Positions 2,270 through 62,691 are shown, counted from the first letter of the stretch. The stretch is DNA of 62,841 nucleotides from Candidatus Avelusimicrobium gallicola (GCA_020722185.1 DYLH01000007.1:1-62841), one strand, 5' to 3'. Numbers and translations: made by a program. The notes: generated by a model not told the origin, from the letters alone.

Positions 2270-2917
2270 CTATGGCCAATGCTTATTTTCTAAATCAAAT
2301 CTCGAAAGCTCTGCGCCTATTTCTATACATCTTTGAGATATATCATCGCCTCGATTTACATAAAATGGCGTACCATAAACAACTCGCGCTTTTGAAAAAG
2401 GCATTGGCAATTCAAATTTATCCCATGATTTTTCAAAAACCTTTTTTTTCTCAACTTTAAAAGTCACAGGCACTATAGCCGCTTCAGTTAATTGGGACAA
2501 AAAAATAGCCCCTGGTTTAACTTCATGCAAAGGCCCCTTTGGGCCATCTACCGCAACAGCGCAGTCATATCCTTCCCTGATAGCTCTTATCATCTCACGC
2601 AAAGCTTTTGTCCCCCCACGAGAGCTGGATCCTCTGACGCATTTATATCCAAATTTTTCAAGTATCGCTGTTAACATATCTCCATCTTTTGACAAACTTG
2701 TAAGTATAACTATGTTTTTCTTTCTGTGGGTATATGTGGCAAGAAATAGTTTTCCATGCCAGAGCACATAAATTATTCTTTTTCCCTCATTTCTGAGTCT
2801 CTCTACAATATCTCCATTCATAAACTCAATTTTTAAACTTTTGGATATAATGTTAATTATAAACCAGGCTAAAGTCGGGACGAGTAAATTGCGTATATAA
2901 AGTTTAAGCCCATTCAT
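2270..2917 (-). CDS. Lysophospholipid acyltransferase family protein (DUF374-type)
   Basis: WHG motif, SLSKDGD, RGSSSRGG, VDGPKGP, WDKFELPMPF. Confidence 0.8.
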   Translation of the reverse strand: MNGLKLYIRNLLVPTLAWFIINIISKSLKIEFMNGDIVERLRNEGKRIIYVLWHGKLFLATYTHRKKNIVILTSLSKDGDMLTAILEKFGYKCVRGSSSRGGTKALREMIRAIREGYDCAVAVDGPKGPLHEVKPGAIFLSQLTEAAIVPVTFKVEKKKVFEKSWDKFELPMPFSKARVVYGTPFYVNRGDDISQRCIEIGAELSRFDLENKHWP

Positions 2918-2985
2918 CCTTATAATTATATAAATTATTGAATTTTGCCTTTAACTTAAATAAAATAAGCTGATGGAGGAATAAT

Positions 2986-3978
2986 ATGATTTTTTTCGTG
3001 ATTTTTTTATCCTTAATTTCCAATCTTTCCGCCATCCCCGTAGAGCTTAAGGATGGGACCAAAATAGAGGGCGAAGTGCAGGGATTCATTGATGACTCCT
3101 ATGCAATAAAGACTAAATATGGCATACTGACTATAAAGAAAGAAGATATTCTCAATGCGCAAGATCTTGAAATTGAACAAGAGAAAATATCAAACAATGA
3201 AGAAAATATATCTTCAGACACAGTCAGTAATAATCATATCGAAGAAACACTGACATTTGAAGTAATAAATTCAAGCGGCGAAATTAAAAAGATATATTAT
3301 GAAAATTCAATCGCAATAGCTACAAGAACATATTCTCAAAACAATGTGCTTATTTCACAGGATGGAAATATAAAAGATGGCACATATACCCAAAGATATT
3401 CCTCTGGCAACATAAAAGCTCAATTGCAATTTGAAAATGAGAAAGAAAACGGTTTAGCTAAATTTTTTTATGAAAATGGAAATATGCAAGCAAGGGCACA
3501 ATACAAAAACGGTTTGCTTGATGGGACGCTTTTTTCATATTCTCCAGAAGGAATTCTTCTTTCAGAACAAAACTACAAAGAAGGCCTTCTCGACGGGAGT
3601 TTTTGCGAATACAATATTGACGGTTCCATTAAAAGCAAAACATTTTATCTAAAGGGAGAGAAAATAGAGCCTCAAAAAGAAACTCCTCAAAATAAAAAAA
3701 TCGCTGAAGAAGAGCCTTTGAGCGCAAAAAAAATAAAAGTGGCAAGAGGATATAGATTCATTGTATATCTTGAAAAAAAATATAAGGCCTCATTCACCAT
3801 ACTTAATAATGGAGTGGAACTAAAAAATAGAAGAGAAGGAGAACTTCCTGATGGCCAGCTAAAAGTTTATTCAGAAGATGGGCAACTTACTGATGAATTT
3901 GTTTTCAAAAACAATAGCATATTAAGGTATTCCAAAATTTCAAACGGTAAAACTGAAATTTTTGATTTCAGCGAATAG
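2986..3978 (+). CDS. Secreted protein with MORN-variant (YwqK-like) repeats
   Basis: Signal peptide; repeated G-x-x-x-x-Y/F-x-x-G-x-x units (DGTYTQRYSSGNIK, NGLAKFFYENGNMQ, DGTLFSYSPEGIL); GGAGG SD. Confidence 0.7.
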   Translation: MIFFVIFLSLISNLSAIPVELKDGTKIEGEVQGFIDDSYAIKTKYGILTIKKEDILNAQDLEIEQEKISNNEENISSDTVSNNHIEETLTFEVINSSGEIKKIYYENSIAIATRTYSQNNVLISQDGNIKDGTYTQRYSSGNIKAQLQFENEKENGLAKFFYENGNMQARAQYKNGLLDGTLFSYSPEGILLSEQNYKEGLLDGSFCEYNIDGSIKSKTFYLKGEKIEPQKETPQNKKIAEEEPLSAKKIKVARGYRFIVYLEKKYKASFTILNNGVELKNRREGELPDGQLKVYSEDGQLTDEFVFKNNSILRYSKISNGKTEIFDFSE

Positions 3979-4007
3979 ATAGGTGGCACTTAGTTAAAAT
4001 ATAAAGA

Positions 4008-4619
4008 TTAAATCTTTTTTTCAAAAACCATAGGATTGCTGTCTGATGCCTCGAACCCTATAAGTTTTAGATATTTTATATGCTGTTTATTGTCTGTTTC
4101 TGCCACTATTTTTTCAAAGCCTGCAAACTCAGATGCAATTTGAGAGGAATCATAAAAACATCTGGCATTTTTCAGATCTCTGTAATCAGGCATCACATAA
4201 TCGAGAATCACCCTTATTTCTTTACCTTCTTTTATAAATATAAATGCGCCAATAGCAGAAATATTTCTCATTATAAGAAAACATTCGGCTTTTTCAAGGG
4301 AGACATCAGTAAATCTTGGGAAAAAACTGATTATGTCTTTTCCATTATATGATAGAAAGTATTTAAGTAAAGTATCCTGTGAACTAGTTTTTACAAATTT
4401 AAATATATCTTTTTTACTTTTAAGCGCATGTATGTAATATGCATCAACAATAACCACAAAAAGATTGGCAACCGCAACCGCATAAGCCTTAAGCGCAAAA
4501 CCATAAAAAACAAATATGAGAGAGCCAATCAGATTTATCACTCTAAGGCGAAAGACATTGCTCATTAAAAGAGATATGGCAACTAGAATTGAGCCTATGT
4601 AACCTATTATCTCAAGCAT
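4008..4619 (-). CDS. YgjV-like inner-membrane protein with a soluble C-terminal domain
   Basis: Three N-terminal hydrophobic helices (IGYIGSILVAISLLM...RLRVINLIGS), then about 135 aa of soluble sequence. Confidence 0.6.
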   Translation of the reverse strand: MLEIIGYIGSILVAISLLMSNVFRLRVINLIGSLIFVFYGFALKAYAVAVANLFVVIVDAYYIHALKSKKDIFKFVKTSSQDTLLKYFLSYNGKDIISFFPRFTDVSLEKAECFLIMRNISAIGAFIFIKEGKEIRVILDYVMPDYRDLKNARCFYDSSQIASEFAGFEKIVAETDNKQHIKYLKLIGFEASDSNPMVFEKKI

Positions 4620-4621
4620 AT

Positions 4622-5563: not shown

Positions 5564-5574
5564 TTATAGAAAAC

Positions 5575-20321: not shown

Positions 20322-20349
20322 AATTTTCAAAATTACATATAATAGCTAT

Positions 20350-21255
20350 ATGGGGAAAATAGAGCCCGTAATACATATTACTACAGCCTGCAATCATAGG
20401 TGTATATTTTGTTCAAGAAAATATAACCCGCCTGATCCGCCTGAGGCGCCAGATGAAGTGAACATGATACTTGAAGAATTCAAAGACACCATAACAATAG
20501 AAGGCGGAGAACCGACTCTTTCAAAAGAGCTGCCCATACTTTCTGCCAGAGCTAAAAAAGCCGGTATAAGAGAAGTTATGCTTGTCACCAATGGCTATTC
20601 TCTTGATGAACCAGAAAACATAAAAAAACTGCTTTCAGCAGGCATTGATATTTTCAATTTTAATTTCCCATCCCATATTGAGAAACTTTACAATACTTTA
20701 AGCGGATCAAAAAATTATCATAAAACAGTTTCCGCAATAAAAAACTGCATAAAAAATGCCGGGCCACAAAAAACAAGGTTGACAATGGTATTAAACTCCC
20801 TAAACTACAAGTACTTAAAAGGATATGCGCATTTTATAAAAAGGGAATTCGGCCAAATATTTTATGCTGAAATCAATATGATAAAACTGCTGGGCTCTGT
20901 AAGAAAAAGAATCTGGCTAATACCCCGACTTAAAGATATCGCACAATACTTAAAGGAAGGATTTTCTGAATTTGACAAATTGGGAATAAATTTTATTTCT
21001 GATGGGATACCGCTTTGTTTTATGAATGGATTTGAGCATAAAAATATAGATGCGTATATGTCTATCAAAGGCGGGTGTTTTTCAACTTCTGAAAAATCTC
21101 ATTTCAAGCCATGTTTATCGTGTAAAATTAAAAGTGTATGTCCTGGTCCCAGAAAAGACTATGTCTCTATTTTTGGATTTAATGAGCTGAAACCAGTTTC
21201 CAATCCACGCGCAAAGGAATTGATACTGAAAAGGATAAAAAGTGAAAGTAAATAA
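20350..21255 (+). CDS. Radical SAM protein with a Cys-rich C-terminal (SPASM/twitch-like) extension
   Basis: CNHRCIFC (CxxxCxxC), GGEPTL, VTNG; C-terminal CF...CLSCKIKSVCPG; start refined to ATG 20350. Confidence 0.88.
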   Translation: MGKIEPVIHITTACNHRCIFCSRKYNPPDPPEAPDEVNMILEEFKDTITIEGGEPTLSKELPILSARAKKAGIREVMLVTNGYSLDEPENIKKLLSAGIDIFNFNFPSHIEKLYNTLSGSKNYHKTVSAIKNCIKNAGPQKTRLTMVLNSLNYKYLKGYAHFIKREFGQIFYAEINMIKLLGSVRKRIWLIPRLKDIAQYLKEGFSEFDKLGINFISDGIPLCFMNGFEHKNIDAYMSIKGGCFSTSEKSHFKPCLSCKIKSVCPGPRKDYVSIFGFNELKPVSNPRAKELILKRIKSESK

Positions 21256-21277
21256 CAAAGATTGATATAATTTACAT

Positions 21278-22948
21278 ATGGCAAAGATGTATCCTTCGGG
21301 AAATTTGAATTTCATAAACAATAGCGAAAAGGAGTTCTACACTCTGCTAAAAGAACATCCTGACACAAAAGAATGGACAGTGTTTTATTCTCATCGTATG
21401 GTCTCAACCAAGTATATAAATGAAGTAGATTTTTTAGTTCTCATCAAGGATTTGGGCATATCCCTTATAGAATTAAAAGCGAATAACCCCATATCAATAT
21501 CCCCAGACACTTTTAAATACAACTATATGGGCAGGATTGAGGAAAAAGAAAATCCATTTAGAAAAATTAAAAATCTCGTAAGCCAATTTAAAACCGTACT
21601 CAAATCTCAAGGAAAAGATTTAGAAAAGATTTTTGTATCTCACATAATAATTTTCCCTGAATATAATGGACTATTTGATAGGAAAATATGCTTTTCAGAC
21701 AGCGCGGATAACTACATCACGGCCTTGACAGAAAAAGAGAAAATTCCTTCTCAAATACTGAACCTTCACCGAAGGCAAAGCCAGAGTGTAAGGAGAATGG
21801 AAGCCGCAAAAGATGTCAATGAAATAAATGGAATACTTACAAAAGTGGAGGAAATACTAAAACACGAAATAGATTTAGACGAGAACGCTCTTCTCATACA
21901 GTTTGAAAAAGAGAATAAATCCAATCTTATCCAAAGCATGCTTAGCCGATGGTTCATGATTGAAAACCTTAAAAAAGCTATTCTCGTAGGTCCAGCGGGA
22001 TCGGGCAAAACTTTTAGCTGTATTCAACAAATGATCAAAAAAAGAAAAGAAAAAAAGACAATAGCCTATTTCTGTCATGGAGCGCTGCTGGCCAGAAAAC
22101 TTTCAAAGGAATTCAGGGAAGTTGACAATGTGGAGATATTTGAATTGAGGGATTTTTTATGCAAAAAACTTAAAAAATCACCCGATGAAAAGATTCCCAT
22201 TCAAGGTCTAATAAAGGATATGATTAATTTAAATCCAAGACCTAAATATGATTTAATAGTGGCAGATGAAGGAGAATTTTATCTCTCAAATGACTTTTTA
22301 TCTCTCTCAAACAAACTTCTTAAAGGTGGTCTCAAAGATGGATTTTTCTGGGCAGCTTTTGATGAATGCATCCTAGAAAGAGAACAAATCTCCGCAATAG
22401 ATAAAGCCTTGGACAATTTTGAATTAAGCGGATTAAAAATTAAATTGTCTGTCAATTACAGAAATTCTTTCGATATGTCTTCTCTTTTTTCCTCTTTTTG
22501 TGGTGATAAACTTTACGAAAAAAGCGAAGTTTCCAATCTTTCTCAAATAACTTCCATTTTTTACAGCGATTCTCAAGAGGCCTCTATTTCAGCAACTCTT
22601 GAAGCTCTCCTTACAAAATACAGGCCATCTGAAATAACCTTCTTAAGCCCCAAACATCTCGAAGAATCCTTTGCCGGGAAACTTCGCAGAGAAAATAGAA
22701 GCTGGGGCAAAAAAATGTCACAGTTAAGCCACCCTCAAGAAGGTTTTTTCAATTATGGAGACCCTGACTCTTTTAGCGGAATGGAGAGCAGAGTGGTAAT
22801 AATCACAGATCTTGACGAAGACTTTTTTTCAAATCCTAGGGCCGGGAAAATTTTGTACAAAATGGCTTCATCTTCTTTATTTAAGCTTGTTTTCCTTGTA
22901 CATGAAAAAGCCAGAGATACTTTTAAACAATATCTGACGAGGGACTAA
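21278..22948 (+). CDS. NERD nuclease domain fused to an SF1 (UvrD-like) helicase domain
   Basis: N-terminal EVDFLVL...IELKA PD-(D/E)xK core; GPAGSGKT, ADE, NYRNS, SFSGME motifs. Confidence 0.8.
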   Translation: MAKMYPSGNLNFINNSEKEFYTLLKEHPDTKEWTVFYSHRMVSTKYINEVDFLVLIKDLGISLIELKANNPISISPDTFKYNYMGRIEEKENPFRKIKNLVSQFKTVLKSQGKDLEKIFVSHIIIFPEYNGLFDRKICFSDSADNYITALTEKEKIPSQILNLHRRQSQSVRRMEAAKDVNEINGILTKVEEILKHEIDLDENALLIQFEKENKSNLIQSMLSRWFMIENLKKAILVGPAGSGKTFSCIQQMIKKRKEKKTIAYFCHGALLARKLSKEFREVDNVEIFELRDFLCKKLKKSPDEKIPIQGLIKDMINLNPRPKYDLIVADEGEFYLSNDFLSLSNKLLKGGLKDGFFWAAFDECILEREQISAIDKALDNFELSGLKIKLSVNYRNSFDMSSLFSSFCGDKLYEKSEVSNLSQITSIFYSDSQEASISATLEALLTKYRPSEITFLSPKHLEESFAGKLRRENRSWGKKMSQLSHPQEGFFNYGDPDSFSGMESRVVIITDLDEDFFSNPRAGKILYKMASSSLFKLVFLVHEKARDTFKQYLTRD

Positions 22949-23504: not shown

Positions 23505-23855
23505 CTAGAATATTGCTAAAGTGGCAGCTATCAAGGCAAGCAATCCGATGCCAAATGGCCAATCCCTTTTTAGCCAGTTTTTATCTTCTTGTTTATCCCT
23601 TTCGCTTGTGAATGGATTGGTAGTTTTAACTATTTCATACTCTTTCTCTATCTCTTTTTCAGTATTTTCTTTTACAATTTCATAATTTTCTTTGGTATAT
23701 GATTCAAGAGTCTTAAAACCAGTACTTTTCCCGGAAGAATTGACTGAAATATCATTTGATATTTTGAATTCTTCTTGTTTAATCAGTTCTTTAGAGCAAG
23801 ACAATAAGAAAATCGACAAGAGTAATATCGAAAAACGACTTATAATTTTACCCAT
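23505..23855 (-). CDS. Lipoprotein with a C-terminal transmembrane helix
   Basis: True start ATG 23855 (MGKIISRF...); lipobox FLLSC; C-terminal WPFGIGLLALIAATLAIF. Confidence 0.7.
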   Translation of the reverse strand: MGKIISRFSILLLSIFLLSCSKELIKQEEFKISNDISVNSSGKSTGFKTLESYTKENYEIVKENTEKEIEKEYEIVKTTNPFTSERDKQEDKNWLKRDWPFGIGLLALIAATLAIF

Positions 23856-23909
23856 GAATAAATTATAGCGAATTTTTTTAACATTAATCAGTTTTTTTGC
23901 TATAATTAG

Positions 23910-31256: not shown

Positions 31257-32996
31257 TTATATGGAGCTTCGGCCAAATTTGCGTACCATATCGTCAAGCG
31301 CAAGTTCTATTATGGTTGGTCTGCCATGAGGGCAGTGTAGGCTGTCTTTGCAGTTTTTGAGATCCTCAATTATTTTCATTGCCGATTTTGAGTCCACTTT
31401 TTCACGGGCTTTTATGGATTTTTTGCATGCCAGTGTTGCTATGGAATTTCTCTTCACATCCTCTGGCGCTTTGTCTGGATCGCCAAGAATTTCTGAAAGG
31501 TATAGAAAAAAATCTTTCAATGCTTCCGGTGTGAAATAGAATATGGACGGAGATGAATATGCTGTTATCAAATTGGGACCAGTTCTGTTTATATCAAAGC
31601 CAGCCTTTGAAAGCCAATCCTTCCATAACATCAGGCTTTCCACCCTTGAAGCTGGCATCTCTATTGCGGCTGGAATAAGCAAATCTTGAACTTGTATAGA
31701 GTCTTTTTCAAAATCTGCCAGATATTTTTCAAAAAGTATTCTTTCCACAGCCGCATGTTGATCCATTATCAAAAGAGATTCTGATGTTTGAAAAAGCAAT
31801 AAACTTTCAAAAATCTGGCCTATAAAAGTTATTGGAGGTTTATACCACTGGGGACCCTTTTCCCCGGAGTAGATATGTTCAAGAAAATCTTCTTGAGCAT
31901 ATTGAGGAAGACTTTGGCTTTCAGTATCTTTGAAAGGAAAAGGATCTCTGGCAATTTCTTCTATTTTATTGGCAGGAATGTAGTCATTTAAAACTTTGAC
32001 CGGAGTTTGATCGGCAAAAATAGTTTTTGAAATAGCGGAATTGACAAGCTCAAAAATTGCTTTGTCATCTTTGAATTTAATTTCTTTTTTTTGAGGATGA
32101 ACATTTACATCTATTTCACTCCCCGGGCCTTTGAGAAACAATACAAAGGCTGGATGCTTTCCATTTCTGACATATTCATACGCCTTATAAACAGCCTGGC
32201 GCACAATATTGCTATCCACTGCTCTGCCATTGACAAAACAGTATTGAGAAGATCTGGAGGAAATGAGAGCGGAAGGATCAAGAGTCCAGCCAGTGAGGGA
32301 AAAGCCTTGCGATTGGGCGATTAGAGGTATCATCTTCTGTGCTGTTTTAGGCATCAAAACTTGTTTCACTGATGAGAAATTGTCTCTGGATGGTTTATAA
32401 GAGAAAATTTGAGAAGAATCTATTTTAAGTGAGAATGAAATTTCTGGTTTTGATAGTATAAATTCTTCCACAACTCTTATGGACGAAGCTTTGATTGAAT
32501 TTTCGCTTTTCAAAAATTTCTTTCTGGCCGGAGTATTGAAGAAAAGATCTCGTATTTCTATGACTGTGCCCTTTACTGGCGGTGCTGGCTTTATTGAGGC
32601 TGAGTTTGGATCTGATCCGCTTCCTTCAAGAGCAAATCCGCTATCGCCATTTCCATCAAATGTCTGTATTTTTAGTTTTGAGACAGAATAAGCTGAATAA
32701 AGAGCCTCACCCCTGAATCCATAACTTGAGAGGGAATATAGGTCCTCACTTGAACTTATTTTGCTTGTGGAGTGCGGAAAAACTGAAAGCTTCAAATCTT
32801 CTTTGTTCATTCCACAGCCATCATCTTTAACCCTGATAAGTTCTTTGCCCGCTTTCAATAGCTCTATCTCTATATTTTTCGCCCCGGCATCTAAAGAATT
32901 TTCTATCAACTCTTTGAGCACAGAAGCGGGGCTTTCGATAACCTCGCCAGCCGCTATCAGCGAGATAACTTCATTTGGCAGGATCTTTATTGGCAT
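31257..32996 (-). CDS. mutL: DNA mismatch repair endonuclease MutL
   Basis: IAAGEVIE, KELIENSLDAGA, DDGCGM, GFRGEAL, DQHAAVERI, ACK, CPHGRP. Confidence 0.97.
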   Translation of the reverse strand: MPIKILPNEVISLIAAGEVIESPASVLKELIENSLDAGAKNIEIELLKAGKELIRVKDDGCGMNKEDLKLSVFPHSTSKISSSEDLYSLSSYGFRGEALYSAYSVSKLKIQTFDGNGDSGFALEGSGSDPNSASIKPAPPVKGTVIEIRDLFFNTPARKKFLKSENSIKASSIRVVEEFILSKPEISFSLKIDSSQIFSYKPSRDNFSSVKQVLMPKTAQKMIPLIAQSQGFSLTGWTLDPSALISSRSSQYCFVNGRAVDSNIVRQAVYKAYEYVRNGKHPAFVLFLKGPGSEIDVNVHPQKKEIKFKDDKAIFELVNSAISKTIFADQTPVKVLNDYIPANKIEEIARDPFPFKDTESQSLPQYAQEDFLEHIYSGEKGPQWYKPPITFIGQIFESLLLFQTSESLLIMDQHAAVERILFEKYLADFEKDSIQVQDLLIPAAIEMPASRVESLMLWKDWLSKAGFDINRTGPNLITAYSSPSIFYFTPEALKDFFLYLSEILGDPDKAPEDVKRNSIATLACKKSIKAREKVDSKSAMKIIEDLKNCKDSLHCPHGRPTIIELALDDMVRKFGRSSI

Positions 32997-33066
32997 AGAT
33001 AAATTCTAACAAATTTAAGACTTTTATGGCTTTTTTAATGTTATAATTTTCTTGAGAGGTGATATT

Positions 33067-34386
33067 ATGGAAAAGACCATAGAAAAAATATTTAATCGCG
33101 CCAAAAATACTGCCTGTGAAGTGATTTTTTTCAAGAACAAAAATTCTCTTACAAGAATAGGTGACAATGAAATATCTCAGAATGTTTTTACAGATAGCGA
33201 ATATGCCGATGTGCGCCTTCAAAAAGATGGGATAAATTTTAAATTTTCACTGAACAAATTCGATGATGAAAGTCTTGATACAGCTTTCAAAAATGCCTTG
33301 CTTTCGTTTAAGTATATGAAGAAAGAAAATAATTTCTTCCCCCTGCTTAAAACACAAGTTAAAATAGATTATAAGAGGCATTATGATGAAGAGACCGCCA
33401 ATCTTTCGCCTGCTTTCAGAGCCGAAAAAGCAAAAAAGATAGTTTCCTATTGCGCCAAAAAAGGCATGACCGCTTATGGGATAATATCAAATGGTTCTTC
33501 TGAAATAATAATCGCAAATACGAATGGAGTTTATCAGAGGACAACTGAGACTTCTCTTAACTATGACATGACTATTAAATATGGACTGGGGTATGGCGCC
33601 GCTTCAGCATATTCCAATAAGTCTGACATCAATTATGAAGAAATAAACGCCCGCGCCATAGAAAAGGCACAAATATCCAAAAATCCATCTGACATAAAGC
33701 CGGGGAAATACACTGTTGTGCTGGAACCTCAGCCAGCCAATGAACTATTGAGCTTTCTTGGATACTATGGTTTTTCTGGATTGGCCTATGTGGAAAAAAG
33801 AAGTTTTGTAAGTGAAGCAATGGGAAAAAAGATTTTTCCAGATTTCATAACACTTACAGACAATGCCATTGACGGAAAAGCCGCTGGCATGCCATTTGAT
33901 TTTGAGGGCTGGCCAAAGGAAAAGGTGGAGTTAATTTCAGAAGGTGTGATAAAAAACATTGTGACAGACAGAAGTATTGCCAAAAAAACTGGCTTTAGAT
34001 ACACTGGACATTCACTGCCTCAGCCAAATTCTAATGGTTCCATAGCAATGAATATTGAAATGAAGGAAGGCAATAAATCTTTGGAAGATATGATAAAAGA
34101 CTGTGAGAAAGGCCTTTTGATAACACAGTTTCACTACACAAATTGCCTGAAACCCAAAGATGTTGAAATGACCGGGATGACAAGAAATGGCACATTTCTA
34201 ATTGAGAATGGCAAAATAAAAAAGGCTGTGAAAAACTTGAGATTTACTCAAAGCGCGATAGAGGCTTTCAAGAATATCAAATGTGTGGGAGACAAGGCTG
34301 AGTTGTTTGGCGGATATTTTGGCAAAAGCGCCTGTCCTGCTCTGACAATAAAAGATTTTAATTTCTCTTCAGGAACTGAATTTTAG
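33067..34386 (+). CDS. pmbA: TldD/PmbA family, PmbA-like (non-catalytic) subunit
   Basis: PGKYTVVLEP, FDFEG, TGMTRNG, NLRFTQS; no HExxH; adjacent to tldD. Confidence 0.8.
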   Translation: MEKTIEKIFNRAKNTACEVIFFKNKNSLTRIGDNEISQNVFTDSEYADVRLQKDGINFKFSLNKFDDESLDTAFKNALLSFKYMKKENNFFPLLKTQVKIDYKRHYDEETANLSPAFRAEKAKKIVSYCAKKGMTAYGIISNGSSEIIIANTNGVYQRTTETSLNYDMTIKYGLGYGAASAYSNKSDINYEEINARAIEKAQISKNPSDIKPGKYTVVLEPQPANELLSFLGYYGFSGLAYVEKRSFVSEAMGKKIFPDFITLTDNAIDGKAAGMPFDFEGWPKEKVELISEGVIKNIVTDRSIAKKTGFRYTGHSLPQPNSNGSIAMNIEMKEGNKSLEDMIKDCEKGLLITQFHYTNCLKPKDVEMTGMTRNGTFLIENGKIKKAVKNLRFTQSAIEAFKNIKCVGDKAELFGGYFGKSACPALTIKDFNFSSGTEF

Positions 34387-42553: not shown

Positions 42554-43232
42554 TTTCCCGCCATGAATATCCAAAATTTTTTACAGTTTCAAGATGTTCT
42601 GCGGCTTTGCCCAGTTTTTTTCTCAAATTCATTATGTGAACATCCACAGTCCTTGTCTCAATATTTGAAGAGTCTTCTGTCTTCCATATTTTTTCAAGAA
42701 TGGATTCTCTAGACAAAACCTTGTTTTTATTTTTTAAAAGTTCTTTAAGTATTATGAATTCGATAGCGGTCAACTTGATGTTTTTGTTTTTGACCTTCAC
42801 TGTTACCTTTTCTATATCAAGCTCAAGGTCTTCGCTTTTTAGTTTTTCATCAGAATCTGAATTTACGCGCGTTCGTCTTAAAATTGCCCGAATTCTCGCA
42901 ATTAATTCCATTATGGAGAATGGTTTCGTTATATAGTCATCTGCGCCGCTTTCAAGGCCTGTTACCTTATCTATTTCCAGTGTTCTGGCTGTGAGCATTA
43001 TTATGGGAATAGTTGATGTTTTCTTTGAAGCCCTTAATGCCTTACATAAAGTTATCCCGTCAAGTCCAGGCAACATTATATCAAGTATTGCCAAATCTGG
43101 TGGCCGGGCAATAATTTTTTCCATCGCAATATTGCCGTCATTGGCGCTTTCTGTTTCAAATCCTTCCTTGCGCAAATTGTATTCAATTGCTCGCAATATG
43201 TCAGGCTCATCTTCCACTATAAATATTCGCAT
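42546..43232 (-). CDS. phoB: OmpR-family response regulator PhoB/PhoP
   Basis: IVEDE, LDIMLP, GADDYITKPF, winged helix TRTVDVHI; next to phoR and pst. Confidence 0.9.
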   Translation of the reverse strand: MRIFIVEDEPDILRAIEYNLRKEGFETESANDGNIAMEKIIARPPDLAILDIMLPGLDGITLCKALRASKKTSTIPIIMLTARTLEIDKVTGLESGADDYITKPFSIMELIARIRAILRRTRVNSDSDEKLKSEDLELDIEKVTVKVKNKNIKLTAIEFIILKELLKNKNKVLSRESILEKIWKTEDSSNIETRTVDVHIMNLRKKLGKAAEHLETVKNFGYSWRENV

Positions 43233-43312
43233 AGTAATATTAAATTTTTTTTAGTGAGATAAAGCAATAAAAAAGCTTTTTTTTCGTTTAATTAATGAAA
43301 TCTCCACCAAAG

Positions 43313-43356: not shown

Positions 43357-43887
43357 TTAGTTCTCAGGCAAATAGATAGAGGCGTTCAAATATCCGCCAC
43401 CTGAAAGATTTAAATAGTTCCCACTGCCTGCCCATCCACTTACATTTATTGGATCTCTTGGGTAAACTGTACCTATGTACTTCCCTTCACTGTAAACAGA
43501 AAACGAGACATTTGGATAGACTGTTTGAAATACATATTGATTAGGGTTTACCCAGAAAGAGGCATATAAGCTTATATTTTGATTGTCGGTTTTCACTTTA
43601 TAATCGGAAGAAACAAGCTGCGTCCATCCAGTGAGATTCACATTTATAAAACCGCCATTCTCCGGCACAAAAGCCCCGCCATTAAGCGTGACATATCCAC
43701 TGAGTGAGACATATTGTCCTGCTTTAACATATGATATAGATGTTTTTTCCAATTTGATATTGTCAATGGATAGTTTTACAGAAGACAGATTTTTTGCAAA
43801 ATCCATTTCTGAGATTCTAATCTTTTCCTGCGCTTTGGATATTGAGGCGATCAGAATAAATACAGCGATAATTGACAGTTTTTTCAT
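43357..43887 (-). CDS. Hypothetical secreted beta-rich protein
   Basis: Signal peptide MKKLSIIAVFILIASISKA; Gly/aromatic-rich beta strands. Confidence 0.65.
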   Translation of the reverse strand: MKKLSIIAVFILIASISKAQEKIRISEMDFAKNLSSVKLSIDNIKLEKTSISYVKAGQYVSLSGYVTLNGGAFVPENGGFINVNLTGWTQLVSSDYKVKTDNQNISLYASFWVNPNQYVFQTVYPNVSFSVYSEGKYIGTVYPRDPINVSGWAGSGNYLNLSGGGYLNASIYLPEN

Positions 43888-44669: not shown

Positions 44670-44732
44670 ATTAAACCTGTCATTCTGACCAGCTTAAAGA
44701 CTGTCAAAATGCTATCATATATTATACAAATT

Positions 44733-45830
44733 ATGGCAATTAAAAAAACTACTATACTTGTGTTTGGAGGAAGTTTTGATCCACCTCACAGTGCGCATAT
44801 TTCAATGCTTGAGGAAGCTGTAACTCTAATTAAACCTGAAAGGGTTATTATTGCTTTGACATGGCTTTCCCCCTTCAAGAAAGAGCATTTTGCCAGTTTT
44901 AGCCAAAGGAGGGAGCTTTTATCAATTGCATTGAAAAAATGCTCTTTTGCCGATATTTGCTATATATCTGATTTTGAGTTTAAGAGAAGAAAGAAAACTT
45001 ATACATGGCAATTTATAAAACATCTTAAAAATAAATATCCAAATTCAGAAATTTTTTTCTTGATGGGATCAGATTCTTTTGTCTCATTGGATAAATGGAG
45101 AAAATCGGAATATATAAAGAAGTCATGTAAATTGATTGTAGCAATCAGAAAGGGTTTTGTCCCTAAAAAAAGTGGCGCTCTTTTTTTAAACAAGATGTAT
45201 CCGCCAAATTCTTCCACTGAATTCAGAGAGAGGGCGCTATTCTGTGATTTTTCTCTCTTGCATAGTAAAGTAGCAAAAAAAATAAAAAAACATGGTCTAT
45301 ACTTTGCGGATTTGGCGTGCGCTATGAAAGAGAATATGTCAGAAAAAAGATTTTTACATGTCGCCAATACCGCTCTTTTATCCATGAGACTGGCTAAATC
45401 TCATGGGATAGACATAAAAAAAGCCGTCATATCTGCGCTTTTGCACGACTGCGCCAAAGAATTGCCATTTAAGAAGCAGGTTTCACTTTCTCTAAAACTT
45501 TTCCCTGAGTCTTTGGTTAGAAAAATCTCTGATATGGCTCCTCTGGCCATTCATCAATTTGCCTCAGCTGCTCTGGCAAGAAGAAAATTTGGAATTTGCG
45601 ATAAGCAAATTTTAAAGGCTATAGCATGGCATTCAATAGGGGAAAAGAACCCTTCAAAGTTGGGGAAATTGCTTTTTATCTGCGATTTTGCCTCATACGA
45701 TAGGCGACACGAAAGCGCAAAAAAAGTGAGAGAAATCGCTTTTTCATCCATTGAAAAAGCGTATACTGAAGTTTTAAGACTAAAAAAGGAATACATAGTT
45801 GAAAAAGGCGGTAGGATAGCGACAATATGA
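44733..45830 (+). CDS. nadD: Nicotinate-nucleotide adenylyltransferase NadD fused to a YqeK HD-domain hydrolase
   Basis: FGGSFDPPHSAH, LMGSDS, SSTEFR; then RFLH, LLHDCAK, AIAWHSIG, ICDF. Confidence 0.88.
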   Translation: MAIKKTTILVFGGSFDPPHSAHISMLEEAVTLIKPERVIIALTWLSPFKKEHFASFSQRRELLSIALKKCSFADICYISDFEFKRRKKTYTWQFIKHLKNKYPNSEIFFLMGSDSFVSLDKWRKSEYIKKSCKLIVAIRKGFVPKKSGALFLNKMYPPNSSTEFRERALFCDFSLLHSKVAKKIKKHGLYFADLACAMKENMSEKRFLHVANTALLSMRLAKSHGIDIKKAVISALLHDCAKELPFKKQVSLSLKLFPESLVRKISDMAPLAIHQFASAALARRKFGICDKQILKAIAWHSIGEKNPSKLGKLLFICDFASYDRRHESAKKVREIAFSSIEKAYTEVLRLKKEYIVEKGGRIATI

Positions 45831-49205: not shown

Positions 49206-50102
49206 TCAGCGTCCCACAATTTCTATTGCTTTTTTTATTGTGTTAAAGTGTATTTTAACTGTCTTATTTATATCGGCGCAATATCCGCCGCTTAATGTAA
49301 GAACAAGTGGCAATCCAGAACTCTTGGCTTTCTCAAAAACTATTTTATCTCTATCCTCTATATCTTCAATAGAAAGACTTAAATCTCCAAGAGTATCTTC
49401 CTTATAGACATCCGCTCCAGCATTATAGAAAATCAAATTGGGACTAAAAGAGTCAAATATATTTTTCAAGGCTTCTTTAAGTTTTGAATTATACACAGAC
49501 CCATTTGTTTTACTCTCAAGTTCTATATCAAGACTACTTTTCTCCTTTTTAGGCGGATAGATGTCTTTAGAATGCATTGAAAATGTGAATACATTTTTTT
49601 CAGCAGACATTATTTCAGCAGTCCCATCCCCCTGATGCACATCTAGATCTATTACTAAAATTTTCTTATCTGAATTTTTTTTAAGCGCTTTTTTTGCCGC
49701 AATAGCTATATCATTTACAAGGCAAAATCCCGCCCCATAATCCCTGTGAGCGTGATGCGCCCCACCTCCGCAGTGAAGGCCCAAACCTTCTTTGAGAGCG
49801 ATATCGCAGGCCATCATAGTCCCACCACAGTGCAGAAGATGGGCAAAAATAATATCCTTATTAACTGGAAGCTCGGCTGTAAGTTGATCGGCAGGAGTAA
49901 GCTTCATATCAAGAAGCTTTTTTACCCATTTTGTAGAATGTGCAAGCAAGAGATCCTCTTCTGTGGGCATTTCTGGTTCTATTATTTTATCCCGCTTTAT
50001 CACCTTTTTCTCAATGAGCAATTCGCATGTCTTTTCAAATTTTTCAGTTTTAAATTTATGCGATAAATCAATCGTATAAAGTGGAGAGTAAATCAATCTC
50101 AT
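49206..50102 (-). CDS. Zn-dependent histone deacetylase family amidohydrolase
   Basis: GGGAHHA, GFCLVND, DLDVHQGDGT, AGAD, LSGGY; start refined to 50102. Confidence 0.92.
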   Translation of the reverse strand: MRLIYSPLYTIDLSHKFKTEKFEKTCELLIEKKVIKRDKIIEPEMPTEEDLLLAHSTKWVKKLLDMKLTPADQLTAELPVNKDIIFAHLLHCGGTMMACDIALKEGLGLHCGGGAHHAHRDYGAGFCLVNDIAIAAKKALKKNSDKKILVIDLDVHQGDGTAEIMSAEKNVFTFSMHSKDIYPPKKEKSSLDIELESKTNGSVYNSKLKEALKNIFDSFSPNLIFYNAGADVYKEDTLGDLSLSIEDIEDRDKIVFEKAKSSGLPLVLTLSGGYCADINKTVKIHFNTIKKAIEIVGR

Positions 50103-50169
50103 TTTCAACATTTTAGCAAAATACAATCAGTAAAACCAAAGACCTATTGACTAAAGGGACCTAATGGCA

Positions 50170-51312: not shown

Positions 51313-53000
51313 TTTTTTCTTTTGTCCATGACATATGCGCTTTTTTCAAAAGCTTTGGCAGCTTTTTTAAGGTCGCTTCCTATATTGCTTATCTGCGCAT
51401 ATGATGTGAGATCTTTCAGGCCATTGTGTACTATTGCCACAGAAATGGCAAGCAGAGGAAATCTTTTAAGAGTTCCTTGCCTGTCAAGACTAGTTATATA
51501 CCCTTTTTCAAGATCTTCTTTCTTATAGAAAGAAGGAGCTATTTCATCAAAAGATTTTGTTATTTTCAGGGCAATTTCTTCAGCTTTTTCATAAGATGTA
51601 ACAACTATAAAATCATCCCCGCCGATATGTCCTATAAAATCGCCTGATTTTTCATTTGGCATAGTGATTTTCACAAGGAGATTGGCAGTTGCTTTTATAA
51701 CTCTATCTCCTGCTTCAAAACCATACACATCATTATATGCCTTAAAATTGTTCAAATCCACATATAAAACTGCAAATTTTTTCTTTTCACTCAAGGCTCT
51801 CTCTATCCTAGACTGTATTGAAGGATTGCCGGGCAATCTAGAAAGAGGATTTGTGTCTAAAACCTGCTTATTCCTCTTTAAAACCATTTTTATCCTTGCC
51901 ACCAACTCATCTGTATCGACAGGTTTTATTAAATAATCGTCTATACCCATTGAAAGACCTTTAAGCTTGGCTTGTTTTTCCCCATAAGCTGTAACTATGA
52001 TAATCGGGATGTGCGCAAAAAGGGGATTCTCTTTCAACTCCGCTGCGGCAGTGAGTCCATCTTTTAAAGGCATATTGTAGTCCATTATTATGATGTCTGG
52101 ATTGCTCTCATAAACAACTTTTATAGCTTCTTCTCCATCAGAAGCAGTGAAAACTTCAAAACCGGCTCTTTCCACAGTCTCTTTGACCAATATCAAGAGC
52201 TCAGTCTGATCATCTGCAAGGAGAACTCTAGGTTTTGAATCTCCAACAAAACTCTGGCTTACTTCTTCATTTATCTTTTTCTCTATTTGTTGCAGAAGGA
52301 ATTTTTCATCTATGTCTTTATATATCATCTCAGGAAGGCCAGTCAGCATCCCCCTATCCTGATATGATTCAAATTTGAGAGCCGTTATGACTATTATAGG
52401 TATTGAAGCCGTTTTCCTCTCATCCTGTAATTCTTGCATTACTTCAAAACCATCTTTGCCAGGCATCATTATGTCAAGAAAAATTAGAGATGGCGAGATA
52501 TTTTTAACAGCTTCAACAGCCCTCTTAGGATTATTTTCCACATAGGCTTCAAAACCCTGCGCGTCAAGAAACATCTTAAGTAAATCAGAGAATTCTCTGT
52601 CATCGTCTACAATAAGAATTTTTTTGCTCTCTCCCACATTTCTCTTCACAGCGCTTTTTAACTCATCAAAATCAACAGGCTTTGATATATACCCGCTTAC
52701 TCTGGGAGAAGGACCAACTATATTCTCTATTTTTCTATTCTGAGAAACCACAAGAATACGACCCTCGCCTGAAGGGTTGTAGTTTTTTATTTTATCTATC
52801 AATTGTATGGCATTAAAACTCTTAGACAGTATGTCCACAATAAAAAGAGAATATGTATTTTTTTCAGCCGAAAAAAACTTGTCTGGCAAATTAGATGAAA
52901 CTGTAAGATTGTAGTATTTTGCGTCAAGAATTTTTCTCACTTTATCTACAAAAATTAAATCATCTGTTAGGAGCAGTATTTCTTTTATGGAATAAGCCAT
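51309..53000 (-). CDS. Triple-receiver GGDEF-domain protein (REC-REC-REC-GGDEF)
   Basis: Three REC blocks (FIVDI/KPVD; IVDDD/LDIMMP; LADDQ/MDYNMP/KPVD); TNPLSRLPG, DLNNFKAYND, GGDDF. Confidence 0.9.
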   Translation of the reverse strand: MAYSIKEILLLTDDLIFVDKVRKILDAKYYNLTVSSNLPDKFFSAEKNTYSLFIVDILSKSFNAIQLIDKIKNYNPSGEGRILVVSQNRKIENIVGPSPRVSGYISKPVDFDELKSAVKRNVGESKKILIVDDDREFSDLLKMFLDAQGFEAYVENNPKRAVEAVKNISPSLIFLDIMMPGKDGFEVMQELQDERKTASIPIIVITALKFESYQDRGMLTGLPEMIYKDIDEKFLLQQIEKKINEEVSQSFVGDSKPRVLLADDQTELLILVKETVERAGFEVFTASDGEEAIKVVYESNPDIIIMDYNMPLKDGLTAAAELKENPLFAHIPIIIVTAYGEKQAKLKGLSMGIDDYLIKPVDTDELVARIKMVLKRNKQVLDTNPLSRLPGNPSIQSRIERALSEKKKFAVLYVDLNNFKAYNDVYGFEAGDRVIKATANLLVKITMPNEKSGDFIGHIGGDDFIVVTSYEKAEEIALKITKSFDEIAPSFYKKEDLEKGYITSLDRQGTLKRFPLLAISVAIVHNGLKDLTSYAQISNIGSDLKKAAKAFEKSAYVMDKRKN

Positions 53001-53070
53001 AATCTGATTTTACAATTTATTAAAACTCTGAACAAACACTAAAGTAGTGTGCACTGAAAAAGCCTAAAAT

Positions 53071-59723: not shown

Positions 59724-59830
59724 TTTAAGCCTCCGGAATAACTCTATTGCCAAAACAAAGAAAACAAGGTACCATTATATTTTAGAAAATATACAGAACT
59801 TTTACTAATAAACCCGCGTAGGGAAACAGT

Positions 59831-60055: not shown

Positions 60056-60144
60056 CTGGGGCGTGTATAAATCTCACTATGACAAGGCGCAAAGAGCAGA
60101 CAAATAAAAAAAAACACAAGCAAAACTAAAGATCTGGGGGCAAA

Positions 60145-60306
60145 ATGAATGAAATATTAGCTTCGTGTTATACTTCGCTTTTAATGAATTTCATGCCTTT
60201 CATTATTGCCGCCGTCTTAATAGGATTAATTCTGTTTCTGCCTACTTATTCAGCAAAAAAAAAGAAGGAAGAATTTAGAAAATCTCGCTATTTCTTTAGG
60301 ATTTGA
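60145..60306 (+). CDS. 53-aa single-pass membrane protein (below the ORF-track cutoff)
   Basis: Read by hand: GGGGG SD-like; MNEILASCYTSLLMNFMPFIIAAVLIGLILFLPTYSAKKKKEEFRKSRYFFRI*; TM followed by a basic stretch. Confidence 0.55.
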   Translation: MNEILASCYTSLLMNFMPFIIAAVLIGLILFLPTYSAKKKKEEFRKSRYFFRI

Positions 60307-60409
60307 ATTAAAACTAAGTGGCAGTTTTTTGCGATTCTGTTCTTTGTCGCCGTGGTTCTTTCCCTCTTTTCACTCTTTGTATTTTACATTTTTTACACTT
60401 TAGAAATGA

Positions 60410-60438
60410 TTGAAAACAGTTTTTTTTATTCGTATAAT
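60410..60438 (+). promoter_or_regulatory. Near-consensus sigma70 promoter placing +1 on the dsbA ATG
   Basis: TTGAAA-17-TATAAT-6-ATG. Confidence 0.7.
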
Positions 60439-60444
60439 TAGGCT

Positions 60445-61068
60445 ATGAAAAGGCTTACAACTGTCAAGATATTTTCAGCTTTGATTTTGATAATTGCCAC
60501 CACATCAACTGTGCTTATCTTCACACGTGGCGAAAAAACACAGGAGACACCTTCCCCAATGTGGCGTAGGATGGGGCCAGAGAAAGCGAAAATAATCATA
60601 TATGAACACTCAGATTTTGCCTGTCCTGCCTGCGCGGGCGCTAATTTCAAACTTAAGGAAATTATGAAAGTTTACGGCAAAGAGATACAACTTAATTTCA
60701 AACATTACCCGCTTACAATGATACATCGCTTTTCTCTGGATGCTGCGGCTTATGCCGATTGCGCCGGAGAACAGGGGAAATTTTGGGAATTTGCAGACCT
60801 TCTTTTCGCAAATGCCGAGAAATGGGCCAATAATGAAAATTTCAAGGAAGAATTCAAAGATTATGCCAAAAAACTAAATCTTGACTGGAAAAAACTTGAA
60901 GAATGTCATCAAGACCCAAAAACATTGAAACAGATAAAATCGGATATTTCCTATGGGGATCTCAAAGGTGTGGACGCCACTCCCACATTTTTCGTAAACG
61001 GGAAGAGGGCGGTAGGCACGCTTCAATTAATAAACAGAATTCAGATTTTGACTGCCGAAGAATTATGA
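60445..61068 (+). CDS. DsbA-family thioredoxin-fold oxidoreductase
   Basis: N-terminal anchor, SDFACPAC (CxxC), HYPL, GVDATPTFFVNG (cis-Pro loop). Confidence 0.9.
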   Translation: MKRLTTVKIFSALILIIATTSTVLIFTRGEKTQETPSPMWRRMGPEKAKIIIYEHSDFACPACAGANFKLKEIMKVYGKEIQLNFKHYPLTMIHRFSLDAAAYADCAGEQGKFWEFADLLFANAEKWANNENFKEEFKDYAKKLNLDWKKLEECHQDPKTLKQIKSDISYGDLKGVDATPTFFVNGKRAVGTLQLINRIQILTAEEL

Positions 61069-61532
61069 AAGAAAAGATTTTAAGCTTATTTTACATTTTT
61101 GCTAGGATGATGCCAGCCATAGTTCTTTTTTATGCTGGGTATGTAAAAATTGCCGCGCCAATGGAAGAATTTGCCTATGCCATAGAAAGATATAGGATTT
61201 TGCCATCACTTTTCATAGCGCCTATCGCTCAATTTTTTCCATGGTTTGAAGTCTATTTGGCCGTATTGCTCTTTTTTGGTCTATTCCAAAATGCAATGTT
61301 AAAAACGGCAACGATGATTTTTTTAGTTTTTGAAATATTATTACTGCAGGCTTTACTGCGCGGGCTTGAGGTGACTAATTGTGGCTGCTTTGGCGCAAGC
61401 AAATCAAATTCTATTGGTTTGGAGTTTACAATGAATATAGTGTGGCTTGCGCTTTTGATTTTGGCCTCTATAAAAAAACCAAATTTTTCGCTTGATTCTT
61501 TCCTTGAAAGGAGATTTTCAAATGAGAACTAG
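61065..61532 (+). CDS. DoxX/MauE family membrane protein
   Basis: True start ATG 61065; AGYVK, PWFE, NCGCFG; four TM helices. Confidence 0.82.
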   Translation: MKEKILSLFYIFARMMPAIVLFYAGYVKIAAPMEEFAYAIERYRILPSLFIAPIAQFFPWFEVYLAVLLFFGLFQNAMLKTATMIFLVFEILLLQALLRGLEVTNCGCFGASKSNSIGLEFTMNIVWLALLILASIKKPNFSLDSFLERRFSNEN

Positions 61533-62265
61533 ACTCTTTCTCATAGTTGCGCTTTCTCTCATATCTTTCCTGGGATTTAGAGGATATGAAGACAAAAAAG
61601 CGGCCGAAGCCATATGGCTTGAGGTTTCATGGCCTGAGAAAAACCAAAGCTATTACATAGAAATAGACACTGAAGGCCGATTTATGACAAAAGAAGAAAA
61701 AAAGAAGAAATTTTTAGTCAGGGAAGGACAAATAAAAAAGATGTATGCCAAAGATTTTTTCAGAGAAACCAAGAATTCCGAAGTAATTGGAGGAAGGAAT
61801 ACAGAAGGAGCAAAGCTACTGTTTTATAAGGGAGAGGTGATTAAAATCTCAGCTTATATAAACGGTGAATTGGTCAGGGTAGAAGCTCCAATGAAAGATT
61901 TCAGTGATTCATTTCGTTTTGCCTTTTCAGAAATGAAAAAAGAGATATTTAAATCCAAGCCACAATACAAATACCCCGCTTTTCTAACAGCAGTACCCCT
62001 TAAAGGAGTATTGCTAGCCCAGTTTCAAAAAGATTTACCTCAAGGCTATAAACTAAAAGTGGTAGAAATTAAGAAACTCAAAACTCAGCCACAGATTTAT
62101 CAGGCGATAAATCACCAGTATAAATTGATACCACTTAAAAACGAAGAAGAGGTTTCATCTATCTTAAATTTTATAAGTGAACAACAGCTTCTTGGAATGA
62201 AATCCCTTTTCTATCTGGGAACGACAAGAGGCAATTTTCAGTGTTCCATAGTTGAACCTGAATGA
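61522..62265 (+). CDS. Hypothetical exported protein
   Basis: AGGAG SD, N-terminal signal/anchor, soluble remainder; no family recognised. Confidence 0.6.
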   Translation: MRTRLFLIVALSLISFLGFRGYEDKKAAEAIWLEVSWPEKNQSYYIEIDTEGRFMTKEEKKKKFLVREGQIKKMYAKDFFRETKNSEVIGGRNTEGAKLLFYKGEVIKISAYINGELVRVEAPMKDFSDSFRFAFSEMKKEIFKSKPQYKYPAFLTAVPLKGVLLAQFQKDLPQGYKLKVVEIKKLKTQPQIYQAINHQYKLIPLKNEEEVSSILNFISEQQLLGMKSLFYLGTTRGNFQCSIVEPE

Positions 62266-62304
62266 GTATTGAATTGATGCCCACATTTAAAATAGAATAA
62301 ACCT

Positions 62305-62691
62305 ATGCCCGAAAATATATTTATAGTGGCCGTGGATGACGACGACACCATACTTGATGTGTATGAGTCTGGTCTTTCGGCGTATGAACTTAAAACCTTT
62401 GATGATCCACAAAAAGCCAAAGAGTACATATTCTCTGAGAAAAAACCTGATGTGATACTTATGGATATAATGATGCCTCATATAGACGGTATAGCCCTGA
62501 TGAATGAAATACATTCCAATGAAAGCACAAAACATATTTCGATAATAGCAGTAAGCGGACTAAATGATGCAGCTACATTAAACGATGCCCTGCTTTTTGG
62601 CGCTATGGACTATCTTGTAAAACCTTTTGATCTAGCAGAGTTGGAGTTGAAGATAAAAAAAGCTGCAGAAATATCCAAAAGAAACCGCTAA
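62305..62691 (+). CDS. Single-domain response regulator (CheY-like receiver)
   Basis: VAVDDDD, LMDIMMP, AVSG, DYLVKPF. Confidence 0.92.
   Translation: MPENIFIVAVDDDDTILDVYESGLSAYELKTFDDPQKAKEYIFSEKKPDVILMDIMMPHIDGIALMNEIHSNESTKHISIIAVSGLNDAATLNDALLFGAMDYLVKPFDLAELELKIKKAAEISKRNR

Follow-up and report, generated by a model that had tools for sequence, protein, structure and literature searches.

The window, that is, the whole 62,841-nucleotide stretch of DNA analysed here, contains eleven genes at which a hexamer resembling a −10 promoter element lies 6 or 7 nt in front of the ATG. An earlier note on this DNA had drawn attention to these sites, and all 11 hexamers, spacers and start codons were found at the positions listed in Table 1. 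The phoB hexamer, TTTAAT, is the weakest box because the conserved A at −11 is missing from it. Pfam searches agree with most of the gene identities given in the earlier note, but the supposed lipoprotein starting at 23855 has no Pfam match, the helicase starting at 21278, described there as a NERD protein, matches ResIII only with no NERD match, and the gene called phoB encodes a regulator of the broader OmpR/PhoB type. In the proposed proteins, Pfam domains begin at residues 1–15, and the N-termini of orthologs align at the same Met. The nadD gene has a tempting upstream ATG inside its own promoter; in the related genome G001 this ATG (44709) is not in frame.

Table 1 Hexamers, spacers and start codons at the 11 sites in the window.
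Gene	Coordinates	Strand	Hexamer, spacer and start codon
DUF374 gene (PF04028)	2915..2930	-	TATAAT 2925-2930, 7-nt spacer TATAAGG, ATG 2915-2917
Radical SAM gene	20338..20352	+	TATAAT, 6-nt spacer, ATG 20350; Pfam domain from residue 9
Helicase gene	21263..21280	+	TGaTATAAT, 6-nt spacer, ATG 21278; TATAAT-N6-ATG = 21266-21280
Small protein ("lipoprotein")	23853..23867	-	TATAAT, 6-nt spacer, ATG 23855
mutL	32994..33011	-	TGtTAGAAT (hexamer 33003-33008), 6-nt spacer, ATG 32996
OmpR/PhoB-type response regulator (phoB)	43230..43244	-	Non-canonical TTTAAT, 6-nt spacer, ATG 43232
nadD-HD fusion gene	44720..44735	+	TATTAT, 7-nt spacer, ATG 44733
Histone-deacetylase-family gene	50100..50118	-	TGcTAAAAT, 7-nt spacer, ATG 50102
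REC-GGDEF gene	52998..53012	-	TAAAAT, 6-nt spacer, ATG 53000
DsbA-like thioredoxin gene	60433..60447	+	TATAAT, 6-nt spacer, ATG 60445
Single-domain receiver gene	62293..62307	+	TAGAAT, 6-nt spacer, ATG 62305

Spacing signal and promoter features across the genome

Over the whole 1.6-Mb genome the pattern occurs far more often than expected by chance. In a promoter-anchored scan, in which the ATG had to open an ORF of 80 aa or more and other spacers in the same phase served as background, TANAAT was followed by ATG 70 times at spacer 6 and 78 times at spacer 7, compared with backgrounds of ~23 and ~44, respectively. TATAAT alone gave 31 and 33 cases against ~7 and ~15. Among called genes the corresponding TANAAT counts were 49 and 47 against ~12 and ~16, where the calls come from a home-made caller based on ORFs and codon usage, so that single starts may be wrong. 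The peak is sharp, being confined to spacers 6 and 7, and it is specific to ATG: the genome-wide scan gave no peak for GTG or TTG starts. About one-quarter of the TANAAT sites at these two spacers are expected by chance.

The signal depends on operon position. For divergent first genes, 21 sites were counted at each of spacers 6 and 7 versus 3.5 and 4.1 expected (P = 2e-10 and 4e-9), which corresponds to an excess of 16–20%. The excess is 10–11% for genes that follow another on the same strand and are separated from it by 40 nt or more, and ~0% for operon-internal genes. The comparison with shuffled controls that the earlier note had proposed gave the enrichment it anticipated: TANNNT is present at −12/−13 in 21.7% of first genes versus 8.1% of dinucleotide shuffles (z = 11.6), and TANAAT in 12.1% versus 1.0% (z = 25). 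Operon-internal genes have no TANNNT excess over dinucleotide shuffles (z = −0.6) and a small TANAAT excess (1.9% versus 0.7%, z = 3.9).

Candidate hexamers are preceded by TGn in 30% of cases, compared with 6% of all genomic TANAAT sequences (odds ratio 6.6, P = 7e-13), and TTG occupies the −35 position in 16% of candidates versus 7%; these two features indicate that the element is a promoter rather than a translation signal. No full or clear −35 consensus was found among the candidate promoters, and the bases directly 5′ of the hexamer are A-rich. A Shine–Dalgarno (SD) match of at least 5 bases precedes only 7% of candidates versus 35% of all genes. Matches of at least 4 bases stand in front of 57% of operon-internal genes, in keeping with the earlier note's remark that many such genes carry GGAGG. 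The 16S rRNA gene of the assembly is a fragment that lacks the 3′ end.

From these counts we estimate that ~75–100 genes are probably leaderless, corresponding to 5–7% of genes and to 11–20% of transcription units, a share that varies with the motif and the class of first gene considered. The word "widespread" in the earlier note therefore stands for a leaderless share that is moderate and not dominant. The window overstates it: such sites are ~2.5 times as dense there as in the genome on average, with 10 of 96 candidate sites lying in 3.9% of the genome. The suggested bias toward regulatory and stress genes was not seen: receiver-domain proteins are not enriched in the leaderless set (2 of 23, Fisher P = 0.67), and the set includes the housekeeping genes thrS, prfB, folD, pyrF, mutS and recG.

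Conservation in orthologs and distribution in Elusimicrobiota

At nine of the ten sites tested in orthologs (all those of Table 1 other than the receiver gene), the box and its spacing are kept while the spacer bases vary, and for mutL, phoB and dsbA the box is kept down to 45–56% protein identity. The mutL box is conserved in nine relatives belonging to eight genera, with TA[AG]AAT-N6/7-ATG present in G001, in G002 and in another seven genera of the family, the protein identity being 42–52% (the values of 46–52% in three of them come from partial matches). In G003 the mutL box is retained with a leader of ~30 nt. What looked like an in-frame stop codon in the mutL gene of genus g17 is its natural stop. 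All six dsbA orthologs examined (84–56% identity) have TATAAT-N6-ATG with a different spacer sequence in each. In the genus, phoB keeps TTTAAT or TTAAAT together with TTGC(A/T)T 17 bp upstream, and in family orthologs the same Met is preceded by TATAAT-N6, TATTAT-N7 or TATCAT-N7.

The DUF374 box is kept in three of four orthologs: it occurs with N7 in orthologs from metagenomes (80% and 59% identity) and lies N6 from the second ATG in G001, and a 52% ortholog located after recR has no box. TATAAT-N6-ATG precedes the radical SAM gene in both same-genus genomes, with differing spacer bases, and the helicase gene in G001 and G002; helicase orthologs in genus g8 are GGAG-led at the same Met. For REC-GGDEF, both G001 and G002 retain aaattgTAAAATc-N6-ATG, and the deacetylase gene has TGaTACAAT-N7 in G001 and TGcTAAAAT-N6 in G002 but is without the box outside the genus. 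G001, G002 and G003 share the nadD element tatcatatattatac at N7–8 spacing; in other genera the same promoter block is followed by a leader of 20–45 nt, with GGAG in four of them. The exception among the ten is the "lipoprotein" gene, whose ortholog in G001 is SD-led, with GGAGAG before the same Met; among the sites with a canonical box it is the least certain.

The phylum was established in part from DsbA, whose nearest named homologs are labelled Elusimicrobia, Elusimicrobiales or Elusimicrobiota at NCBI; a MutL scan of named genomes returned only distant matches from other phyla. Within the genus, family and order the spacing signal is strong. It is weaker in two relatives at the class level, and Endomicrobium proavitum has almost none, the class-level and phylum-level samples being small (120–400 kb each). 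Expressed as the spacer-6/7 excess per Mb, it amounts to 57 in the genome studied here, 61 in G012, 38 in G021 and −14 in G053 (38% GC). E. proavitum Rsa215 (PMC4505116) resembles the present organism in phylum, genome size, GC content and the possession of SD-led genes, but its excess is only 5.6 per Mb (40% GC; 400 kb measured), and the trait therefore varies within the phylum. Because E. proavitum and G053 are nearly without excess, the peak is not an effect of AT-richness.

The ATG-abutting −10 layout is inherited. We favour, as a somewhat better than even proposition, a history in which one order-level clade of Elusimicrobiota kept ATG-abutting and often extended −10 promoters on about one-sixth of its transcription units, including those of the core genes mutS, mutL, recG, thrS and prfB, while the proteins diverged to ~45–50% identity, and in which another class, represented by E. 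proavitum, has almost none.

Proposed initiation mode and its alternatives

We propose, at a probability of roughly 80%, that a −10 box adjoining the ATG makes the mRNAs of these first genes leaderless and that the promoters are of the housekeeping type. The promoters would be recognized as sigma-70-type elements, mostly consisting of a −10 or extended −10 (TGnTAnAAT), with 6–7 nt between the end of the hexamer and the start codon of the first gene in the transcription unit. Because of this distance, RNA polymerase would begin on the A of this ATG, give or take one base, and would produce an mRNA with neither a 5′ leader nor an SD sequence. A ribosome carrying initiator tRNA could then bind the 5′-terminal AUG directly, as for leaderless mRNAs elsewhere in bacteria. 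Genes downstream in operons, and most other first genes, would use ordinary GGAGG-type ribosome-binding sites, and individual genes may have switched between leaderless and SD-led initiation with the promoter unchanged. The earlier note had likewise read these first genes as leaderless, and the positional peak, its restriction to first genes and to ATG, the extended −10, the depletion of SD motifs and the conservation in orthologs all point in that direction.

At 37% GC, TANNNT-like hexamers are common, and some will fall 6–7 nt before an ATG without any function. In ~11% of genes background alone puts TANNNT by itself at one of the two spacers, one candidate, at 43806, is a false positive whose orthologs have no ATG there, and the "lipoprotein" site is not conserved. 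Such coincidence does not predict a sharp peak at first genes only, the enrichment of TGn, conservation across genera or the lack of a peak in equally AT-rich genomes of the same phylum. Chance is thus refuted as the general explanation, for which we regard it as extremely improbable, and still applies to about one-quarter of the sites taken singly. The position of the element, where a ribosome-binding site would lie, its A/T-rich composition and the A-rich bases just upstream would also suit a translation signal other than an SD sequence, acting on an mRNA with a leader and comparable to the A-rich motif of Bacteroidetes ("group B" genomes). Such a signal should precede operon-internal genes too, but these use GGAGG instead; the upstream TGn is a promoter feature, and nadD and mutL orthologs keep the box 20–45 nt upstream of an SD-led start, so that we consider this reading very unlikely.

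Two further alternatives accept the boxes as real promoters. The adjacent ATG might not be the start, the apparent first codons serving as leader for translation from a start downstream, and gene callers do disagree on some starts: the DsbA call in the window, at 169 aa, omits 38 residues, and one ortholog was given 220 aa, 13 more than the proper 207. We judge a downstream start unlikely, given that Pfam domains lie so close to the proposed Met, that orthologs, including SD-led ones, align from this same residue and that SD motifs are depleted around the candidate starts. Alternatively, the ATG-adjacent promoter could be secondary, with most of the mRNA leadered and originating from an upstream promoter, as further −10-like hexamers in several intergenic regions might suggest. 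The candidate genes, however, lack an SD sequence that a leadered transcript could use, and it is the ATG-adjacent element that is conserved; mixed transcripts of this kind are a decidedly improbable explanation.

Relation to known leaderless systems

Leaderless initiation of the kind proposed here has precedents in many phyla. Outside Actinobacteria and Deinococcus-Thermus, leaderless genes make up 2–16% in many phyla according to Zheng et al. 2011 (PMC3160421), and GeneMarkS-2 assigned 1028 of 4769 bacteria to a leaderless class, with 25–50% of operons leaderless in its group C (PMC6028130). Since leaderless genes occur in so many phyla in these surveys, the Elusimicrobiota case would be a further instance of a known mechanism. 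The earlier note knew of no report for such a lineage, and we likewise found none of leaderless genes in Elusimicrobia in the searchable literature; the text of PMC6028130 and PMC3160421 does not name Elusimicrobiota. The novelty is nevertheless smaller than that note implied, given the many phyla already known.

The arrangement resembles the "group C" or "TA-led" genes of these surveys (PMC6028130, PMC3160421) in having a Pribnow box 6–8 nt from the start of first genes and SD sequences elsewhere, in the coexistence of leaderless and SD-led genes in one genome and in the switching of orthologs from one mode to the other between related genomes. The estimated share of transcription units, 11–20%, lies below the group C range and is closer to the 2–16% of genes of Zheng et al. 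With Mycobacterium tuberculosis and Deinococcus deserti (PMC6028130) it shares the −10-to-start spacing, the lack of an SD and the mixture of housekeeping and accessory genes, but in those species transcription start sites were mapped by dRNA-seq (cited in PMC6028130), whereas here the architecture was read from the sequence, for which searches of sequencing runs returned three DNA runs, all of one 2014 biofilm metagenome study, and no RNA run. Both species are GC-rich, in contrast to the 37% GC and frequent extended −10 TGn of the present genome. A 5′-terminal GUG is also used by mycobacteria; here the peak is confined to ATG.

Leaderless starts are misplaced by gene finders that look for a ribosome-binding site, and the annotation of metagenomic Elusimicrobiota would gain from a dual start model. 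The result leaves the known picture of the leaderless mechanism unchanged and extends the range of bacteria with a probably sizeable leaderless fraction to an uncultured, Gram-negative and AT-rich lineage. If the inheritance proposed above is correct, leaderless and SD-led initiation would have replaced each other repeatedly on a retained promoter (nadD, mutL, the helicase gene and the radical SAM gene), and the phylum would offer a natural contrast for the gain or loss of leaderless initiation. Variation within the phylum and the switching of single genes may thus be useful for understanding how the two modes of initiation replace each other.

Candidate sites and the genome-wide signal

The genome that holds the window, as contig C38, is metagenome-assembled (1.6 Mb in 60 contigs, 36.8% GC), and the window sequence was found in a 2014 biofilm metagenome run. 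The closest named homologs of its DsbA-like protein are nearly all labeled Elusimicrobia, Elusimicrobiales or Elusimicrobiota by NCBI, in line with assignment of the genome to the phylum Elusimicrobiota. An earlier note had proposed −10 boxes 6–7 nt before the ATG of eleven first genes, read as leaderless mRNAs, and every hexamer, spacer and coordinate was verified in the sequence. Nine of the eleven hexamers are TANAAT (TATAAT at five sites, TAGAAT and TAAAAT at two each), that of nadD is TATTAT, and that of phoB, encoding an OmpR/PhoB-type regulator, is TTTAAT, without the A at −11. The gene identities are Pfam-backed except for the 'lipoprotein', which has no Pfam hit, and the helicase, which matches ResIII only; the first Pfam domain begins 3–15 residues from the proposed Met in 6 of the 10 genes scanned. 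GGAGG-type sites, described in the note for operon-internal genes, are present there and at many other window genes.

In a promoter-anchored scan that uses no gene calls, every TANAAT on both strands was paired with any ATG that begins an ORF of ≥80 aa, for spacers of 0–30 bases between hexamer and ATG. The counts are 70 at spacer 6 and 78 at spacer 7, compared with ~23 and ~44 at other spacers of the same phase; for TATAAT alone they are 31 and 33 versus ~7 and ~15. The peak is absent for GTG and TTG starts in the same genome-wide scan. Among 1371 genes called by a simple method based on ORFs and codon usage, 49 (spacer 6) and 47 (spacer 7) carry the layout versus ~12 and ~16. Divergently transcribed genes (n = 220), taken as unambiguous first genes, give 21 and 21 versus 3.5 and 4.1 (P = 2e-10 and 4e-9), an excess of 16% for TANAAT and 20% for TANNNT. 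The excess is 10–11% for same-strand genes behind a gap of ≥40 nt (n = 276) and ~0% for operon-internal genes (n = 816). The shuffle test suggested in the note bore out the enrichment: in first genes TANNNT occurs at −12/−13 in 21.7% versus 8.1% of dinucleotide shuffles (z = 11.6) and TANAAT in 12.1% versus 1.0% (z = 25), and in internal genes TANNNT is not in excess (z = −0.6) and TANAAT slightly so (z = 3.9). The overall excess amounts to ~75–100 genes, or 5–7% of genes and 11–20% of transcription units. The window overstates the genome average because 10 of the 96 candidates (genes with TANAAT at spacer 6 or 7) lie in this 3.9% of the genome. A further match at 43806 was rejected as a chance match and illustrates a background of roughly 25% among single sites.

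A hexamer at a fixed distance from the start codon could be a translation signal instead of a promoter, but such a signal would be expected before operon-internal genes too, where the excess is ~0%. An extended −10 TG precedes 30% of the spacer-6/7 hexamers versus 6% of all 7842 genomic TANAAT (odds ratio 6.6, P = 7e-13), and TTG lies at −35 distance from 16% versus 7%. A Shine-Dalgarno (SD) motif of at least 5 bases is found at 7% of candidates versus 35% of genes overall. These sequence statistics, together with conservation, give good support to the leaderless reading, and it is from them that we infer the transcript starts.

The regulatory bias proposed in the earlier note was not seen: receiver-domain proteins are not enriched (2/23 among candidates). 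The candidate set is functionally broad: beyond the window it includes ThrRS, RF2, MutS, RecG, FolD, PyrF, a type II/IV secretion ATPase, a carbamoyltransferase, a DedA/VTT membrane protein and an ACT protein, and in several of these a Pfam domain begins at residues 1–9. TANAAT-N6/7-ATG is present at mutS, recG, thrS and prfB (contigs C3, C33, C26 and C45 of the same genome); the joint occurrence of mutS, mutL and recG is anecdotal and carries no statistical weight. ThrRS begins at the editing domain, its N-terminal TGS domain seemingly absent, and prfB is one 373-aa ORF in which the programmed frameshift was not seen.

Conservation of the layout

Orthologs for ten of the eleven sites were taken from 30 relatives and from metagenome contigs. 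The layout is kept family-wide for mutL and phoB and down to 56% identity for dsbA; most other sites were examined or are conserved within the genus only. At mutL, TGnTA(A/G)AAT-N6-ATG is found in both same-genus genomes and TA(A/G)AAT-N6 or N7 in seven further genera of the family, at 42–52% protein identity (46–52% in three genomes being partial matches). G003, a relative outside the genus, keeps the mutL box, followed by a ~30-nt leader with an SD-like AAGGA. In a sister family, mutL directly follows another gene, starting within a few bases of its end, and is operon-internal without its own promoter; the protein encoded by that upstream gene terminates in ...EWKK(R/K). For phoB, the weak box is retained in the genus together with TTGC(A/T)T 17 bp upstream, and across the family the same Met is preceded by a canonical box, as TATAAT-N6, TATTAT-N7 or TATCAT-N7. 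TATAAT-N6-ATG precedes dsbA in 6/6 orthologs examined (84–56% identity), with a different spacer sequence in each.

The DUF374 box is kept in 3/4 orthologs, and at the radical SAM, helicase, deacetylase and REC-GGDEF genes both same-genus genomes retain box and spacing. In other genera, the helicase and radical SAM orthologs instead have GGAG, or a weaker run of purines of the AAGG type, before the same or a nearby Met. The nadD promoter block tatcatatattatac is conserved, with the leaderless layout (N7-8) in the genus and G003 and a 20–45-nt leader in other genera, four of them with GGAG. The 'lipoprotein' site is not conserved, as GGAGAG precedes the same Met in the same-genus genome G001. 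Across orthologs, hexamer and distance are kept and spacer bases drift, the pattern expected if the box–ATG distance were under selection.

Start-codon annotation

Gene callers choosing ATG 44709 over-extend nadD, because that ATG is out of frame in G001. For one DsbA ortholog of 84% identity, the start call uses an ATG in the −35 position and so adds 13 surplus codons; such conflicting DsbA start calls are typical of gene-finder behavior at leaderless starts. The TldD/PmbA-like gene divergent from mutL is read as leadered and SD-led, because TGtTATAAT precedes a short leader, tttcTTGAGAGG.

Coordinates of individual features (window positions unless a contig is named)
Feature	Position	Strand	Observation
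mutL–TldD/PmbA-like region	32997-33075		common 55-bp intergenic region, two back-to-back promoters
TldD/PmbA-like promoter and leader		+	kept in both same-genus genomes
TTG, longest-ORF start of TldD/PmbA-like gene	33052		probably not the real start
TAGAAT-N7-ATG in ORF 43357-43887	43806	-	ATG replaced by AAC or AGC in same-genus orthologs
nadD in-frame ATG	44709 (44709-44735)		eight codons upstream of conserved Met, overlapping own promoter
DsbA-like gene	60445-61068		public record of this protein 169 aa, 82% coverage
16S rRNA gene, sole in assembly	C33:1-1072		fragment (model positions 9-873 and two scraps) without the 3' end, where the anti-SD sequence sits

Distribution within Elusimicrobiota

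The promoter-anchored statistic was reused on samples of relatives, with AT-rich genomes lacking the peak as internal negative controls. The leaderless layout is clade-specific within the phylum.

Excess of the layout per Mb in samples of Elusimicrobiota genomes
Genome	Relationship	Sample	Excess per Mb
Own genome		1595 kb	57
G001, G002	same genus	60 and 40 kb, syntenic	130-167
G012	same family	373 kb	61
G021	same order, other family	400 kb	38
G078	same class	400 kb, 53% GC, small counts	23
G076	same class	140 kb, very small counts	19
G059	same phylum, family of E. proavitum	400 kb, 36% GC	19
G052 (Endomicrobium proavitum Rsa215, PMC4505116)	same phylum	400 kb, 40% GC	5.6
G053	same phylum	120 kb, 38% GC	-14

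'TA-led' leaderless genes have been described in 207 of 953 bacterial genomes; their share of all genes exceeds 20% for Actinobacteria and Deinococcus-Thermus and is 2–16% in many other groups (Zheng et al. 2011, PMC3160421). GeneMarkS-2 places 1028 of 4769 bacteria in 'group C', with a Pribnow box ~10 nt from first-gene starts and 25–50% leaderless operons (PMC6028130). Within searchable papers, literature mentioning both Elusimicrobia and the leaderless trait yielded no report of it for the phylum. The results point to a moderate leaderless fraction in this Elusimicrobiota lineage, for which we found no earlier report. Its practical value lies in start-codon annotation, and it offers a contrast within one phylum for studying the exchange between leaderless and SD-led starts.
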